NCBI GenBank assembly: GCA_964354215.1
Contig: CAYGYT010000002.1
Span: forward strand, 19,595 to 83,594
DNA length: 64,000 nt
Reading direction: 5' to 3'
From: an uncultured Eubacteriales bacterium
Lineage (GTDB): Bacteria > Actinomycetota > Coriobacteriia > Anaerosomatales > CAVRZR01
Shown: piece after piece, positions 33,004 through 50,620 of the stretch
How the letters are laid out: every line of letters begins with the position of its first letter
How positions within the stretch are numbered: the stretch's first letter is position 1
Notes under the pieces: model-generated
Databases searched by the model: none
Seen by the model: the letters and a program-made list of their open reading frames with translations, nothing else
Told to the model about the DNA's origin: nothing
Program-made: the position numbers and the translations under genes

Positions 33004-34149
33004 ATGGCACTCGACATCGAGACGAGAACGACGGCTGTCGACCAGGACGGTCGCAACGTCGAGGAGCTCGTAGTCAACGTCGGGCCGTCGCATCCGTCCA
33101 CGCACGGGGTCTGTCGCGTCATCGTCCATTTGGACGGCGAGATCGTCACGAAAGCGATCCCGGTCGTCGGCTACCTGCACCGCGGTATCGAGAAGATGGC
33201 GGAGAACCGAACCTACCTTCAGGTCGTGCCGCTGACTGACCGACTCGACTACGTCGGCTCCATGTACGCCAACTGGGCGTACTGTCGCGCCGTCGAGCGC
33301 CTTGCGGACATTCGTATCCCGGAGCGTGCCGAGTACCTCCGCGTCATCACGTGCGAGATGCAACGCATCGCTAGCCACATGATGGCGCTCGGCTCTTCGG
33401 CGGCCGACACGGGCGCCTTCACGATGTTCATCTACGCCTTCGACGTGCGCGAGCGGATCATCGAGCTCTTTGAGGAGCTGTGTGGCGCGCGGCTCACCTA
33501 CAACTACGTGCGTCCGGGTGGTGTGTCCTTCGACGTGCCCGACGGATGGACCGAGCGGCTTCTCGACTTTGCGAGCAACGCTCCGGCGCAGTTCGCCGAG
33601 ATGGACAGACTCTTCTTCGGCAACGTGATCGCTCGCGGGCGACTCAAGGACGTCGGCGTTCTGTCAGCCGAAGACGCCGTCGCCTGGGGTGCGTCGGGCC
33701 CTGTCGCGCGCGGCAGCGGCGTGAACTGGGACTTGAGGAAGAACGACACGTACTCGGTGTATCCGCGATTCGACTTCGACGTCCCGCTCGGCGAGAACGG
33801 GGACTCGTACGACCGGGCGCGCGTTCGCCTGTTTGAGTGCTACGAGAGCTGCAAGATCCTCACTCAGGCCGTCGAGCAGATGGAGCCCGGCCGCGTCATG
33901 GTCGAGGGCCTCCCGCGACTGCTCGCTCCTCGCCCGGGAGACGCGTACGACCACATCGAGTCCGCTCGTGGGTCGCTCGGCGTCTACCTCGTGTCCGATG
34001 GCAGCGTGAGGCCGTATCGCATGAAGGTCCGCTCGCCCGCGTTCTGCAACCTGGCGTTGCTCGGACACCTCGCCCCCGGTCACACGCTTTCCGACCTCGT
34101 CGTGATCCTCGGCTCTCTCGACCCTGTGTTCGGCGAGGTGGACCGATGA
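33004..34149 (+). CDS. nuoD: NADH-quinone oxidoreductase subunit D (quinone-binding; not a [NiFe] large subunit)
   Basis: GPSHPSTHGV, GYLHRGIEK, DRLDY, ESARG, KVRSPAF, GSLDPVFGEVDR; no CxxC Ni ligands. Confidence 0.96.
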   Translation: MALDIETRTTAVDQDGRNVEELVVNVGPSHPSTHGVCRVIVHLDGEIVTKAIPVVGYLHRGIEKMAENRTYLQVVPLTDRLDYVGSMYANWAYCRAVERLADIRIPERAEYLRVITCEMQRIASHMMALGSSAADTGAFTMFIYAFDVRERIIELFEELCGARLTYNYVRPGGVSFDVPDGWTERLLDFASNAPAQFAEMDRLFFGNVIARGRLKDVGVLSAEDAVAWGASGPVARGSGVNWDLRKNDTYSVYPRFDFDVPLGENGDSYDRARVRLFECYESCKILTQAVEQMEPGRVMVEGLPRLLAPRPGDAYDHIESARGSLGVYLVSDGSVRPYRMKVRSPAFCNLALLGHLAPGHTLSDLVVILGSLDPVFGEVDR

Positions 34150-42765: not shown

Positions 42766-43052
42766 GGCGCCCCGCCTCCTCAGTTGCAGCTTGCTCACGA
42801 ACCATTGACGGCTCATGAACACCCTCAGCCACCCTTGCGTCTGCTATCGGGCAGCGCTATGCTCCCGACAGGAAGTTGCATGCAAATGCAACCCCTTACC
42901 CCTGAGCCTCAAGGTGCCGGCCTTGGGGCTCCCCCTTTTCCCAGGCCCCTTCTCGGGCGCCTCCTCAGACACACCCAGGACTTGTCCCTCCCACTCTCCT
43001 GTCCCGTGTGAGCGCGGACACACTGCCTGCGCAGTGCTTCCGGGGAGCTCCG

Positions 43053-43080
43053 TAAAGAGGCCGGAGCGCACTGCCGATAC
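43053..43080 (+). promoter_or_regulatory. Sigma-28 (FliA/SigD/WhiG)-type promoter TAAA-N16-GCCGATAC
   Basis: TAAA 43053-43056 and GCCGATAC 43073-43080; ATG follows 7 nt later with no SD. Confidence 0.75.
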
Positions 43081-43087
43081 GTCTCAC

Positions 43088-43348
43088 ATGAAGCTCTCCG
43101 CCGAGCAGGCGCAACGCGCACTCGACTACCTGCAACGGAAAGGCCCGCCCACGGTGGAACCTACTACCTTGTCTCGCGAAGTCTCTGACGAGCTCATGAA
43201 GCGCGTTCTCACTCGCATCGCACACAGTCCAGACCCTCGTCCCGGACGGGTAGCCGACGCGATCGGTTCCCTCGACGGTCGACTCCCCAGTTCCGACGAC
43301 GTCGCCGAGCGCATACTCTGGCGCGAGCTAGCAGACTCGATTCGCTAG
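43088..43348 (+). CDS. Small protein resembling FlgM anti-sigma-28 factor (86 aa)
   Basis: C-terminal PDPRPGRVADAIGSL..PSSDDVAERIL resembles the FlgM pattern D-x-R-xx-(K/R)V...(I/V)AE(K/R)(I/M); lacks the GxY of proteobacterial FlgM; preceded by a sigma-28 promoter. Confidence 0.55.
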   Translation: MKLSAEQAQRALDYLQRKGPPTVEPTTLSREVSDELMKRVLTRIAHSPDPRPGRVADAIGSLDGRLPSSDDVAERILWRELADSIR

Positions 43349-43482
43349 GACCGGATGCCACCCGTCACGCGACCGGTGGCAGTAACTCGCTCGTCAACGG
43401 ATAATGCGGCCAGTGCCGCACGCGAGATGAGCGAGAGGGGTCGATCCGCCTGAGCCAGCTGCGCCCGCTCATCACCATCGGC

Positions 43483-43728
43483 ATGAATGTGCTCGTCATC
43501 ATCGCCGTGCTGCTGACCCTACGCATCGTTGCTCGCTACTTCGGGATGCTCTCGAGTTCCGGCCCGGGCGAGCTGCTCGTCTCAGCCTCAAGCGTCTTCG
43601 TGCTTCCGCTCGCATTGACCGACATCCGCTCGCTGTATGGCGGCGTCTTCGACGTCAATGCATCAGTGACCGTGATGATCGTGCTGCTCGCCGAGTGGCT
43701 GCTGAGCGCCCTGCGCGCACGAGTCTGA
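43483..43728 (+). CDS. Small YggT-like membrane protein
   Basis: Two to three hydrophobic helices; LLTLRIV and GGVFD..ASVTV patterns; start may lie further upstream. Confidence 0.55.
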   Translation: MNVLVIIAVLLTLRIVARYFGMLSSSGPGELLVSASSVFVLPLALTDIRSLYGGVFDVNASVTVMIVLLAEWLLSALRARV

Positions 43729-43739
43729 GAGGGGATGGC

Positions 43740-45422
43740 ATGTCGATACCAGATGGCAGTATTTGGCAGAAGCGACTAGGTGAGGTCCTCGTTGCCTCTG
43801 GCGTCATCTCCGATGAACAGCTGACAAGAGCCTTGGACCACCAGGTGGCTCGGGGAGGCAAGCTCGGCGAGATCCTCGTTCGGGATCTCGTCCTCACCGA
43901 GGACGAGATCGCCCAAGCCCTTGCCCAGCAGAAGGGTCTGCAGCTGGTGAATCTTGCAGTGTTCCCTGTCGACAGGACCGCTGCGAGCCTGATCCCGGAA
44001 CGACTGGCGCGCCGACGGCTGGTCATCGGCATCGGATTCGAGGACACGGGCCTACTGCTCGCGATGGCAGATCCGCTTGACATAGAAACCGTCGACGACG
44101 TGAGACTCACGACCGGCATGAAGGTGATCCCCGTCGTGGGAACGCCGAGCCAGATCGTCTATGCGATAGACAAGTTCATAACGTCGGCGGATGCCTTCCA
44201 GGAGCTCGCTTCCGAGACGTCCGATCTTGAACTCGAGTCGATTCCCGATGACATCCGGGGCGAGGACGTGCCGGTCGTCAGGATTGTCAACCAGATCATC
44301 CGGGAAGCGATCGCCGAGGGCGCGAGCGACATCCATCTCGAACCCGACGAAGATGGCGTCCGCGTGCGCTACCGGATCGACGGCGTACTCACCGACTTCG
44401 CGAGACTCCCGCGCTCGGCCAAGGCCGGCTCGCTCTCGCGGCTCAAGATCATGGCCGATATGGACATCGCTGAGCGGCGGCGCCCACAAGACGGGCGCCT
44501 CGCCATCGGCATCGAAAACCGCCAGGTGGATCTGCGCGTCGCAACGTTGCCGACTCCCTACGGCGAGAGCATCGTCATCCGAATTCTCGATTCCGAGCTC
44601 TCGTTCAGGTCCCTCACGGAGCTCGGCCTGGGGGAGCGTCAGCTCGACATGTTCAGACGATTCATCGCTCGGCCCTACGGCGCGATTCTGATCGCGGGCC
44701 CAACGGGAGCCGGCAAGACGACGACACTGTATGCAGCACTCATGGAAGTGAACTCGCCATCGCGGAAGATCATCACCGTCGAAGATCCCATCGAGTATCG
44801 GATGGACGGCGTTACGCAGGTAGCGGTGAACCCGAAGATCGGCCTCACGTTCGCATCGGGCCTACGTACGATCCTCAGATCCGATCCGGATGTCGTCATG
44901 ATCGGGGAGATGCGCGACCCAGAGACAGCCGAGATCGCCATCCGAGGCGCACTCACCGGACACCTTGTCCTTACGTCGCTTCACACGAACAACGCTCCAG
45001 CGTCTCTCACGCGCCTCTCCGACATGGGGGTGCCGCCCTACATCACGTCCTCGTCCGTGATAGGGGTGGTCGCTCAGCGCCTCGTGCGCAAGCTGTGTCC
45101 GGCGTGCAAGGAGCCCGTCAACGCAGCGCCGGAGACGCTCCTGTCCATCGGATTCCCGCCAGATGAACTTGACGGACTCACGATCTTCGGCCCGGTGGGA
45201 TGCGACCGCTGTTCGAAGACCGGGTACCGTGGTCGCATCGGCGTATTCGAGGTGATGGAGGTCACCGATTCGGTGGTGCGCGCCTACCTCGCCTGCGCGC
45301 CGGTGCACGAGCTGCGCGCGCTCGCAGTTGAAGCGGGCATGCTCACCATGGGACGCGACGCGCTCGACAAGGTAGCTGCTGGCGAAACGAGCCTCGAAGA
45401 GACGGCGAGGGCGGTCGTCTGA
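43740..45422 (+). CDS. pilB: PilB/GspE/MshE-family assembly ATPase with N-terminal MshEN domain
   Basis: RLGEVLVASGVISDEQLTRALDHQ; ASDIHLEP; MDIAERRRPQDGR; GPTGAGKTTT; TVEDPIEY; LRSDPDVVMIGEMRD; TGHLVLTSLH; CPAC/CDRC Zn motif. Confidence 0.9.
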   Translation: MSIPDGSIWQKRLGEVLVASGVISDEQLTRALDHQVARGGKLGEILVRDLVLTEDEIAQALAQQKGLQLVNLAVFPVDRTAASLIPERLARRRLVIGIGFEDTGLLLAMADPLDIETVDDVRLTTGMKVIPVVGTPSQIVYAIDKFITSADAFQELASETSDLELESIPDDIRGEDVPVVRIVNQIIREAIAEGASDIHLEPDEDGVRVRYRIDGVLTDFARLPRSAKAGSLSRLKIMADMDIAERRRPQDGRLAIGIENRQVDLRVATLPTPYGESIVIRILDSELSFRSLTELGLGERQLDMFRRFIARPYGAILIAGPTGAGKTTTLYAALMEVNSPSRKIITVEDPIEYRMDGVTQVAVNPKIGLTFASGLRTILRSDPDVVMIGEMRDPETAEIAIRGALTGHLVLTSLHTNNAPASLTRLSDMGVPPYITSSSVIGVVAQRLVRKLCPACKEPVNAAPETLLSIGFPPDELDGLTIFGPVGCDRCSKTGYRGRIGVFEVMEVTDSVVRAYLACAPVHELRALAVEAGMLTMGRDALDKVAAGETSLEETARAVV

Positions 45423-47992: not shown

Positions 47993-50620
47993 GTGCAGCT
48001 CGCAGTCGGACACGCGAACCCCGACTTCGACGCGTACGCCGCGACCGTGGCAGCGACCAAGCTGTTCCCGGGGATGCGCGGTGTCTTCCTCGGCACGCAG
48101 AACCCGAACGTGCGGTCGTTCCACAATCTGCATGAGGACTTCCTCGACTTCGTGGACCTCAAGGGCCTCGAGCTCGACGACGTCGAGCGCCTCGTGATGG
48201 TGGACACGCGCGACGCCGGGCGCATCGGCGAGCTCGGTGAGGTGGCGCTCCGTGCCGGCGTCGAGGTGATCGTCTACGACCATCACCCGCCAGCTGAGGG
48301 TGACCTTGCCGGCATCGACGACCGCAGCCTCGATGTAGGCGCCACGACATCGATCCTTGTCCACGAGCTTCACCGCCGAGGTATCCCGCTCACCCCCCTC
48401 GAGGCGAGCGTCATGCTCTTGGGTATCCACGAAGACACCGGATCGCTCACATATCCGGGCTCGACGGCGTACGACGCGCAGGCGGCTTCGTACCTGATGG
48501 CGGCGGGCGCTGACATCGAGGTCGTGAACCAGTTTCTGACCCGCACCCTCGACCCCACGCAGCGTATGCTCCTCGACGCACTCACCGAGCACCTGGAGGT
48601 GTGGGACGTCAACGGCCAGCAAGTCGCAGTGGGCTGGGCGCAAGCCGACGACTACGTCGATTCGGCGAGCGTGCTTACGCACTACGTGGTCGAAGACATG
48701 GGCTATCGGGTCGCCATCGGCATCGTCTCCATGCCTGAGCGGACGCAGGTGGTCGCGCGAAGCCGCCTCGCCGAGGTAGATGTCGGAGCGGTGATGACCC
48801 GGATCGGCGGGGGAGGCCACGCTCAAGCCGCTTCTGCGGCGTTTCGGAGCATCACAATCGAGGAGGCGCGCGACAAGATCAGGGCAGCGCTCGAGGCGGA
48901 AGTGCGCCCGCCTTTGCGCGCGGGAGACATCGCGTCGCGGCCCGTTCGCACGGTCTCGCCGGACGAGAGCATGCGCGAAGCCGGAGAGCTTATGGCGACG
49001 TGGGGGCACGGAGGCCTGCCCGTCCTCGAGAAGGGACGCCTCGCGGGCCTCGTGACGCGGAAGGACGTCGACAAGGCGGTGCGACATGGGCTCGCGCACG
49101 CACCTGTGAAGGGCTTCATGACTCGGGATCCCGTCACCGTTGCGCCGGACCTCGATCTGTTTGCCCTCGAGCGCTTGCTCGCCAAGGCCGGAATCGGGCG
49201 TGTGCCGGTGGTTGAGGGAGACACACTCGTGGGCATCGTGACACGCAAGGACCTCCTGCGTGCCGAACACGGAGACGACTATCTCGATCGGCGACTCCCA
49301 CACGCTCGGATCGAATCGACCACGCGCTTCCTGTCGTCGGTGGATTCACTGCTCCCACCCGAGGCGGTCGGCGCGCTGCGGCGCCTGGGAGCGCTTGCGG
49401 ACGAGCACGGTCTTCGTGCCCATGTTGTAGGCGGGTTCGTGCGTGACATGCTGCTCGGTCGCCGCAACCTCGACATGGATGTCGTTGTCGAGGGCGATGG
49501 AGTCCGGTTCGCCGAGGCTGCAGCCGCTACGCTGGCGGGACGCGTGAAGGTACATCGACGGTTCGGTACCGCGGTGCTCGTGCTCTCTCGCACGCTGCAC
49601 GTCGACATCACGAGCGCCCGCACCGAATACTACACGCGGCCCGGTGCTCTCCCGACCGTCGAGCGGTCCTCGCTCAGACAGGACCTCTTCCGGCGGGACT
49701 TCACGCTCAACGCCATGGCCGCGTGCATCAACCCCGAGTGCTTCGGCGCGATCGCGGATCCCTTCGGCGGTCTACGGGATCTTGAGCGCGGTACGCTGCG
49801 AGTACTCCACTCTCTCTCGTTCGTCGAAGACCCGACGCGGGTACTTCGCGCCGCCCGATTCGAGCGGCGCTACGGCTTCACCCTCGATTCGGCTTCCGAG
49901 GACCTCGCTCGGCGGGCGGTCGAGATGGAGATGCTCGACGAGGTGTCGGGCGCGCGGATCCGCGAGGAGATGCTCGACATCCTCGATGAGGATTCGCCGT
50001 CATTGGTCTTCGAGCGCCTGGCTGAACTCGGCGCCCTCGACGTGCTGCTGCCGGAAAGCGTGAGCGCCTCGGGGGCGGTGCGACGGCTCTCGGCAACTGA
50101 GAGCGCGTATCGCAAGCTGGCTCCGCTGTTCTCGCGGACTCCCCGCCGCCGCGTGGTGCTCGTCGCAGCGGTCGCATCGGCTGCACACCGTGCCGATGCA
50201 GAACGCTGGCTTAGGCACTTTCGTTTCGGCCGCGAGTACGGCGAGCCCGCGCTTGCCACCTCGTCTCGTGCCGAGGCCACGCTCGTCGCTCTCAAGAGCC
50301 GGCGCAAGATGCGGGATAGCCGACTCTACAGTCTGCTCGAACACCTGCCCGACGAAGCCGTCCTCGTCGTCTGGGCGCTCGGCACCCCGACGGCTCGGGA
50401 TCGGATCGAGCGCTTCGTGACCGAGCTTGCCAAGATCAAGCCGGCGGTGACCGGCGCGGACCTCATCGAGATGGGCTACGAACCGTCCGAGGCGTTCTCG
50501 ACTATACTGGCCCGAGCCCGGTACGACCGATTGGACGGACGGGTGATCGGCCGAGAGGCTGAGCTCGCGAACCTTCGCCGACTCGCGAAGGTGGCGCACC
50601 TCGAGCCCAACGCAAGCTAG
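47993..50620 (+). CDS. cca: DHH-CBS-CBS-tRNA nucleotidyltransferase (A-adding/CCA-type fusion)
   Basis: HANPDFD, YDHH, GIHEDTG, GGGH; two CBS repeats; VGGFVRD..DMD, RRDFTLNAMA, FVEDPTRVLRAARF. Confidence 0.9.
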   Translation: MQLAVGHANPDFDAYAATVAATKLFPGMRGVFLGTQNPNVRSFHNLHEDFLDFVDLKGLELDDVERLVMVDTRDAGRIGELGEVALRAGVEVIVYDHHPPAEGDLAGIDDRSLDVGATTSILVHELHRRGIPLTPLEASVMLLGIHEDTGSLTYPGSTAYDAQAASYLMAAGADIEVVNQFLTRTLDPTQRMLLDALTEHLEVWDVNGQQVAVGWAQADDYVDSASVLTHYVVEDMGYRVAIGIVSMPERTQVVARSRLAEVDVGAVMTRIGGGGHAQAASAAFRSITIEEARDKIRAALEAEVRPPLRAGDIASRPVRTVSPDESMREAGELMATWGHGGLPVLEKGRLAGLVTRKDVDKAVRHGLAHAPVKGFMTRDPVTVAPDLDLFALERLLAKAGIGRVPVVEGDTLVGIVTRKDLLRAEHGDDYLDRRLPHARIESTTRFLSSVDSLLPPEAVGALRRLGALADEHGLRAHVVGGFVRDMLLGRRNLDMDVVVEGDGVRFAEAAAATLAGRVKVHRRFGTAVLVLSRTLHVDITSARTEYYTRPGALPTVERSSLRQDLFRRDFTLNAMAACINPECFGAIADPFGGLRDLERGTLRVLHSLSFVEDPTRVLRAARFERRYGFTLDSASEDLARRAVEMEMLDEVSGARIREEMLDILDEDSPSLVFERLAELGALDVLLPESVSASGAVRRLSATESAYRKLAPLFSRTPRRRVVLVAAVASAAHRADAERWLRHFRFGREYGEPALATSSRAEATLVALKSRRKMRDSRLYSLLEHLPDEAVLVVWALGTPTARDRIERFVTELAKIKPAVTGADLIEMGYEPSEAFSTILARARYDRLDGRVIGREAELANLRRLAKVAHLEPNAS

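Follow-up and report, generated by a model that had tools for sequence, protein, structure and literature searches.

In Salmonella, Bacillus and Aquifex, FlgM (PF04316; PDB 1RP3, 1SC5, 9WSF) is an anti-sigma-28 protein of ~85–100 amino acids (aa) with four helices, expressed from a sigma-28 promoter and always accompanied by sigma-28; in the flagellum its export provides a checkpoint. In the phylum Actinomycetota, FlgM is missing or was lost early according to published accounts (PMC4255298, PMC13595943), the early loss being called probable and leaving the partner of many WhiG-type sigma factors unknown (PMC13595943), and it has been credited only to flagellated basal classes (PMC10746217). 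A switch in which RsiG and cyclic di-GMP (c-di-GMP) hold the sigma factor, RsiG-(c-di-GMP)2-WhiG, has been described in Streptomyces and Rubrobacter (PMC7005675, PMC8325347). Here, a sigma-28/WhiG-type promoter and the FlgM-like gene behind it are described from a stretch of 64,000 nucleotides (nt; hereafter the window) of an uncultured bacterium of the order Anaerosomatales (assembly GCA_964354215.1, contig CAYGYT010000002.1, positions 19,595 to 83,594), a lineage scored as lacking flagella and FlgM (PMC10746217 and others). We consider it moderately probable that this gene is transcribed by WhiG as a leaderless mRNA, and that its product exerts an export-independent, FlgM-type negative feedback on WhiG.

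The closest precedent is the FliA-FlgM module of non-flagellated Legionella oakridgensis: FlgM expression there is reported to depend on sigma-28, and the protein to repress FliA targets and to undergo degradation instead of export (Tlapak et al., 2017, reviewed in PMC5655016). The two cases are alike in that sigma-28 and FlgM have outlived loss of the flagellar regulon, that flgM is transcribed by sigma-28, and that release would be independent of export. They differ in phylum, in the WhiG2-type sigma factor with RsiG found here, in a FlgM invisible to Pfam and a probably leaderless mRNA, and in a trait that here spans whole families (20/30 genomes with the FlgM-like gene are without FlhA). 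Relative to this precedent, the new elements would be the coexistence of RsiG on one WhiG, the extreme divergence of the protein, and the leaderless promoter. Compared with canonical FlgM, the protein has a similar size, predicted helix number, type of promoter and accompanying sigma factor, and conserves the C-terminal pattern R-V..A...L......VA.K/R; it differs in lacking a type III export apparatus, flgN and a flagellar cluster, in replacement of the G-x-Y signature, in giving no direct Pfam match, and in its nuoN-deoB location.

The elements of the locus are as follows:

43053..43057, + strand: -35 element TAAA(G) of sigma-28/WhiG type (direct read; TAAA at 43053-43056; TAAAG unchanged in six related loci)
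43072..43080, + strand: -10 element (T)GCCGATAC of sigma-28/WhiG type (direct read; GCCGATAC at 43073-43080)
43088..43348 including the stop, + strand: divergent FlgM-family gene of 86 codons (translation of the open reading frame, ORF)
43031..43074, no strand: imperfect inverted repeat over the promoter, GCAGTGCtTCCGG / CCGGAgcGCACTGC (GCAGTGC.TCCGG at 43031-43043 pairs with CCGGA..GCACTGC at 43061-43074)

The original prediction, made from this window, placed a sigma-28-type promoter before a divergent FlgM-like gene that lies apart from any flagellar locus and is probably transcribed without a leader. This core stands, given that the promoter is conserved, WhiG is present in the genome, and FlgM homology is recovered by profiles. 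A direct read of the source DNA around the promoter (ccgTAAAGaggccggagcgcacTGCCGATACgtctcacATGaag) reproduces its coordinates exactly: TAAA and GCCGATAC, at 43053-43080, are separated by a 16-nt spacer (43057-43072), and 7 nt (gtctcac) separate GCCGATAC from the ATG at 43088, a gap that has no space for a Shine–Dalgarno sequence. The promoter thus conforms, as TAAA-N16-GCCGATAC 7 nt from the ATG, to the published description of sigma-28/WhiG promoters, which comprises a -35 T(A/C)AA, a spacer of ~16 nt, and a -10 GCCGATAA with central CGA, no more than 200 nt from the start codon (PMC13595943). The ORF also translates as predicted, into an 86-aa product that ends ...PDPRPGRVADAIGSLDGRLPSSDDVAERILWRELADSIR. 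The inverted repeat noted across the promoter is present, but is absent from all five related loci compared; it is therefore probably incidental, and was rejected as an operator.

All homologues of the 86-aa protein begin MKLSAEQ or MIISDEQ. A longer ORF of 177 aa, which had no match in Pfam or NCBIfam scans, was rejected: homologues start at MKLS/MIIS, and its N-terminal part is a translation of the promoter and of an upstream small-RNA element (see below). The flgM-like gene is under purifying selection, the ratio of non-synonymous to synonymous substitution rates (dN/dS) between related loci being 0.14–0.33. Close relatives of the protein occur in metagenomes and metagenome-assembled genomes, and an exhaustive profile search recovered 164 cluster representatives at 50 % identity, nearly all of 82–90 aa and matched end to end; the 86-aa protein matches this family profile at 4.4e-25. 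An AlphaFold2 model (mean predicted local distance difference test score, pLDDT, 78) has four helices (residues 5-18, 34-45, 52-62 and 69-85), and a small, largely helical product, of a family of ~85 aa, is as in FlgM.

Homology to FlgM was recovered through intermediate sequences and by profile–profile comparison. PF04316 (FlgM) is matched individually by 46/107 family members, and no other Pfam family by more than one; against all PDB sequences, the family profile scores best with FlgM (9wsf_B, E = 0.011), the alignment covering the two C-terminal helices. In a phylum sample of 251 genomes, 43 are FlgM-positive (30 by the family profile and 13 by PF04316 only). In 24 of the 30 profile-positive genomes PF04316 matches the same loci; the six that it misses are the source genome, the two other members of its order, and three genomes from families f7 and f26. 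Alignment by hhalign of a profile of the clade of the 86-aa protein (9/11 members without a Pfam match) with one of eight Pfam-validated homologues from flagellated genomes gave 97.7 % (E = 1.6e-12), from first to last residue, and S4, P48, R51, A73, R79 and D83 are invariant in both the clade and the flagellar FlgMs. Representative genes of the validated set have flgN (PF05130, 81–84 bits) immediately after them, and the gene lies within ~20 kb of FlhA in G005 and G135, in G005 also adjoining flagellin. An flgN after flgM is confined to the flagellated families f29 and f10. Beyond the hhalign result, the 86-aa protein resembles FlgM of the basal flagellated classes (PMC10746217) in an N-terminal MKIS.EQ motif and a C-terminal R...D tail; unlike it, those genes stand in flagellar clusters before flgN and have 25–40-nt leaders. 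These comparisons support assignment of the 86-aa protein to a highly divergent branch of FlgM; the predicted FlgM-like identity is thus borne out by the intermediate-sequence and profile–profile comparisons, although not by a direct Pfam match.

The promoter is conserved along with the gene. Six loci of different relatives all keep TAAAG-N13/14-TGCCGATA(C/G)-N7-ATG; at 6/6 the start codon is ATG, 7 nt from the -10 8-mer. The 13–14-nt spacer and the 7-nt discriminator vary at most positions, with the 7-nt length held constant. Because synonymous divergence of the flgM-like gene between related loci (dS = 0.75–1.1) should have altered unconstrained bases, as it has in the spacer, this conservation is meaningful. 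More widely, G[CAT]CGATA occurs no more than 100 nt upstream of the gene in 26/30 of the profile-positive genomes, across 12 taxonomic families, vs. 2.7 % of control windows, and many N-terminally extended, mis-called family members translate the promoter as 'xK......ADTxxM', that is, as an in-frame TAAA...GCCGATA...ATG. A start-codon distance of 8–14 nt is found only in the source order (families f1 and f2), whereas the remaining families have 21–64-nt leaders with Shine–Dalgarno sequences; the probably leaderless layout therefore arose locally, in a gene whose dependence on sigma-28 is ancient. The flgM-like mRNA is probably leaderless, and we infer a transcription start at 43088, the A of the ATG.

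The sigma factor required by this promoter is encoded. WhiG is the only sigma-28-family sigma factor of the genome (289.9 bits vs. TIGR02479, cut-off 189.6), and its gene is located on another contig, on the minus strand of contig 10 at 33210-33884, between xerC and rpsB, in a context conserved in actinobacteria (dprA-trmFO-xerC-whiG-rpsB-tsf-pyrH). Against S. venezuelae WhiG (PDB 6PFJ) it scores 325 bits, with 65 % identity over 247 aligned residues by our own count, and it retains the c-di-GMP contacts K57, G61 and R62 as well as 4/5 of the RsiG-contact residues (residue list in PMC13595943). The genome also encodes RsiG:

contig C13:22788-23117, + strand: single-motif RsiG of 109 aa (PF22802, 72.7 bits; PDB 7lq2, 2.4e-10; PDB RsiG chains, 1e-10 to 1e-12)

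Its motif is E-x3-S-x2-R-x3-H-x3-D, with His replacing Gln, as is also the case in five relatives from four other families (L046-L050). A remark accompanying the original prediction, that actinobacterial WhiG is usually held by c-di-GMP-dependent RsiG, thus proves correct for this genome. Given the presence of RsiG and the retained contacts, this WhiG belongs to the type controlled by RsiG (WhiG2), to which the FlgM-like protein would add another brake; together these features suggest an export-independent control of WhiG besides the c-di-GMP-dependent one. The sigma factor family is shared with the switch of Streptomyces and Rubrobacter, a probable type IV pilus output is shared with Rubrobacter, and the source genome has its single-motif RsiG; the difference is that the 86-aa protein is unrelated to RsiG, and would be a second, c-di-GMP-independent input to WhiG (PMC7005675, PMC8325347).

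The prediction held that the window is free of flagellar genes, and the absence extends to the whole genome: FlhA and flagellin were searched for across the 97.8 %-complete assembly and neither was found, nor was either found in G000, G220 or G233, or in the source order. Features of the classical export checkpoint are accordingly missing, there being no FlhA or flagellin, and the neighbours of the flgM-like gene being nuoN and deoB rather than flgN. In the phylum sample (raw counts, with kinship ignored), a FliA/WhiG match is present in 43/43 FlgM-positive genomes vs. 189/251 overall, and both the FlgM-like gene and WhiG are missing from the ordinary families of the same class. RsiG is present in 20 and FlhA in 10 of the 30 profile-positive genomes: nine combine flagella with RsiG, one has flagella only, 11 (including the source genome) have RsiG only, and nine have neither. 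In these last nine, the FlgM-like protein is the sole recognisable anti-sigma factor for WhiG. Sigma-28 paralogues usually number two in flagellated genomes and one in non-flagellated ones. In the non-flagellated families f7, f22 and f27 (L024, L029, L032 and L039), hpf, encoding the long ribosome hibernation factor, directly follows the flgM-like gene. The Bacillus gene order is flgM, late flagellar genes, then hpf; this adjacency matches it and looks like the scar of a deleted late-flagellar block.

A circuit of the following kind can be proposed. RNA polymerase with WhiG would recognise TAAA-N16-GCCGATAC and begin transcription at 43088 or 1–2 bases off, producing a leaderless mRNA; its translation would yield the four-helix protein, which belongs to the FlgM anti-sigma-28 family and has diverged strongly within it. 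We infer that this protein has anti-sigma activity, most likely binding and damping WhiG, so that a rise in active WhiG would raise the brake. Because the organism has no flagellar export apparatus, the brake could not be removed by secretion; release would presumably occur by proteolysis or dilution (cf. L. oakridgensis). The FlgM-like brake would operate beside RsiG, the anti-sigma factor armed by c-di-GMP, and type IV pili, along with a few regulators, are its probable targets.

This output is suggested by further WhiG-type sites identified in relaxed promoter searches of the genome:

contig C3:53-66 kb (L043): type IV pilus cluster encoding two MshEN-containing PilB paralogues, a DUF4388 protein, PilC, pilin, PilD and PilM
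contig C12:14485-14520 (L044 986-1023): second WhiG-type promoter of leaderless geometry, TCAA-N16-GCCGATAG-7 nt-ATG, before a gene for a Crp/FNR-family regulator (cNMP_binding + HTH_Crp_2)

A type IV pilin gene, the product of which contains GFTLIELMVV, is preceded by TAAAG-N14-TCCGATAC, and another WhiG-type site precedes pilM within the pilB-pilC-pilD-pilM cluster. WhiG controls pili in Rubrobacter (PMC8325347), and its regulon there is mirrored here by the WhiG-type promoters before the pilin gene and pilM. The promoter of the Crp-like gene has the same 7-nt leaderless geometry as that of the flgM-like gene.

Several observations weigh against a FlgM-type brake on WhiG. The 86-aa protein itself has no Pfam or NCBIfam match even at E <= 10, and PF04316 has no match anywhere in the genome; the canonical G-x-Y signature of FlgM is lost, G-R-L-P standing in its place. 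Foldseek comparison of the AlphaFold2 model with the PDB returned no structural match, as might be expected if the protein adopts its fold on binding its partner; the agreement with FlgM is thus in helix number. Co-occurrence with WhiG would follow equally if the gene were a mere WhiG target. A second anti-sigma factor is not needed where RsiG, the established one for WhiG2-type sigma factors, is present and WhiG keeps its RsiG and c-di-GMP contacts. Furthermore, FlgM of flagellated relatives may pair with the second sigma-28 paralogue, which is missing from the source genome.

The FlgM lineage persists in 43/251 of the sampled Actinomycetota genomes, with one branch that is beyond the reach of Pfam, and the gene has kept a sigma-28 promoter throughout; FlhA was checked in the 30 profile-positive genomes, of which 20 are without it, i.e., without flagella. 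The 86-aa protein can be put forward as a concrete candidate, open to test, for an anti-sigma factor that acts on WhiG independently of export, and the genome offers a natural case of FlgM and RsiG beside a single WhiG. Given the 65 % identity to S. venezuelae WhiG, a well-established laboratory species could be used to test the idea.

As the main alternative, the gene would descend from flgM and still be a WhiG target, but its product would no longer inhibit WhiG and would have a new role, for example in pilus assembly or signalling with the products of two downstream genes. We hold this to be unlikely, although a serious contender. The downstream region contains:

43356..43381, + strand: hairpin TGCCACCCGTC / GACCGGTGGCA without a U-run, 8 nt past the flgM-like stop (inverted-repeat scan)
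43376..43405, + strand: sigma-70-like promoter candidate GTGGCA-N18-GATAAT before the 81-aa gene (AACGGATAATGCG kept in five close loci, flanks diverged)
43483..43728, + strand: predicted membrane protein of 81 aa (ORF list; conserved downstream neighbour within the source order)
43695..45422, + strand: pilB3, a third PilB/MshE-type ATPase paralogue (T2SSE, 430 bits; MshEN, 61 bits), the stop of which overlaps the deoB start

The order flgM-like gene, 81-aa gene, pilB is common to the source genome and the sister family (G220 and G233), and this linkage in three genera of the order favours a new role. So do the position of the protein in the most divergent branch of the family, invisible to PF04316; movement of the gene from a flgM-flgN or flgM...hpf context to nuoN-deoB; the presence of RsiG and of a WhiG that keeps its RsiG contacts (4/5); and control of pili by WhiG in Rubrobacter (PMC8325347) and apparently here too. 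Three points are contrary to it. The invariant positions of flagellar FlgM (S4 to D83, as listed above) are all kept. The closest relatives dispense with pilB3, yet hold the flgM-like gene under the same selection. Lineages without RsiG and flagella retain the FlgM-like gene and WhiG, which argues for an anti-sigma role.

The same neighbourhood bears out only in part the predicted continuation of the transcription unit into a pilus ATPase. The gene order holds in G220 and G233; however, pilB3 is missing in the four closest relatives (L006, L009, L010 and L012), in which the 81-aa gene is followed by deoB or the contig end, and the stretch from the flgM-like gene to its downstream neighbour contains a conserved -10-like element, GGATAATGC, suggestive of a second, independent promoter. 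(The five close loci represent these four distinct relatives, as L006 and L011 are the same contig.) A terminator scan after the flgM-like gene found no canonical intrinsic terminator, and one was therefore rejected for that position; the hairpin at 43356..43381 is possibly a 3'-end or stabilising structure. Co-transcription from the flgM-like gene to pilB is thus possible without being required. Homologues of the 81-aa protein, which has no Pfam or NCBIfam match, are encoded directly after the flgM-like gene in L006, L009, L010, L012 and G220; the gene is absent from this position in other families, being conserved only within the source order, where it always takes this place, and was rejected as a family-wide partner. 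Its true start may precede the annotated ATG, since conservation extends 5' of it. The c-di-GMP-binding MshEN motif of pilB3 is intact (NF053729, 63 bits vs. a cut-off of 38). An elaboration that combines these genes with an inhibitory role, and that we regard as very doubtful, is that FlgM has exchanged its link to the flagellum for one to a pilus machine: the 81-aa membrane protein and the c-di-GMP-binding PilB/MshE ATPase would take the FlgM-like protein out of action, by removal or sequestration, giving two c-di-GMP-reading brakes on WhiG (RsiG directly, and the FlgM-like protein via MshEN). If true, pilus assembly would have a checkpoint comparable to the one that FlgM export provides for the flagellum.

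It is highly improbable that the sigma-28-like motif arose by chance and that the gene depends on some other promoter, or on read-through originating in the nuo operon or in the upstream small RNA. Across the 2.34 Mb of the genome, TAAA-N14-17-GCCGATA has a single occurrence, at the promoter of the flgM-like gene, against a chance expectation of ~0.9 per genome that we calculated from base composition. With one observed vs. ~0.9 expected, this count is consistent with chance and not significant by itself, and was dropped as evidence for the promoter. A chance origin is countered by the invariance of the motif and its distance to the ATG at six loci with diverged spacers, and by the frequency of the upstream -10 element (26/30 genomes vs. 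2.7 % of controls). Read-through is countered by a terminator-like hairpin, CCCCCUUUU with a short U-run, that closes the small-RNA element 113 nt before the -35 element and was not called by the terminator scan.

That the 86-aa protein is an RsiG-type c-di-GMP-dependent anti-sigma factor rather than a FlgM relative, as might be expected of a small helical protein in an actinobacterium with WhiG, is already refuted, since it has neither the E(X)3S(X)2R(X)3Q(X)3D motif nor a PF22802 match, and the scan of all ORFs for the motif led to the real RsiG, a different gene on contig 13.

Upstream of the flgM-like promoter lies the small-RNA element:

42870..42940, + strand: candidate small RNA, a separate unit between nuoN and the flgM-like gene, with two hairpins, a C-rich linker CCCCUUACCCCU and a U-tail

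At least 66 nt of the element are invariant in five loci, and comparison with G220 and G233 by blastn shows 98–100 % identity over 48–55 nt, whereas the neighbouring protein is only 26–35 % identical. Its minimum free energy is -32.9 kcal/mol (z = -4.24). It is present as a single copy in the genome, and an Rfam search assigned it to no family. A conserved promoter-like pair, CTTGCA...TATCCT, is located upstream of the element.

Elsewhere in the window, 47993-50620 (+ strand) encodes an 875-aa DHH-DHHA1-CBS-PolyA_pol fusion, which scores 646 bits against the A-adding tRNA nucleotidyltransferase model, below the cut-off of 1440 bits. The match hints that, in the source lineage, CC-adding and A-adding activities are divided between separate enzymes.

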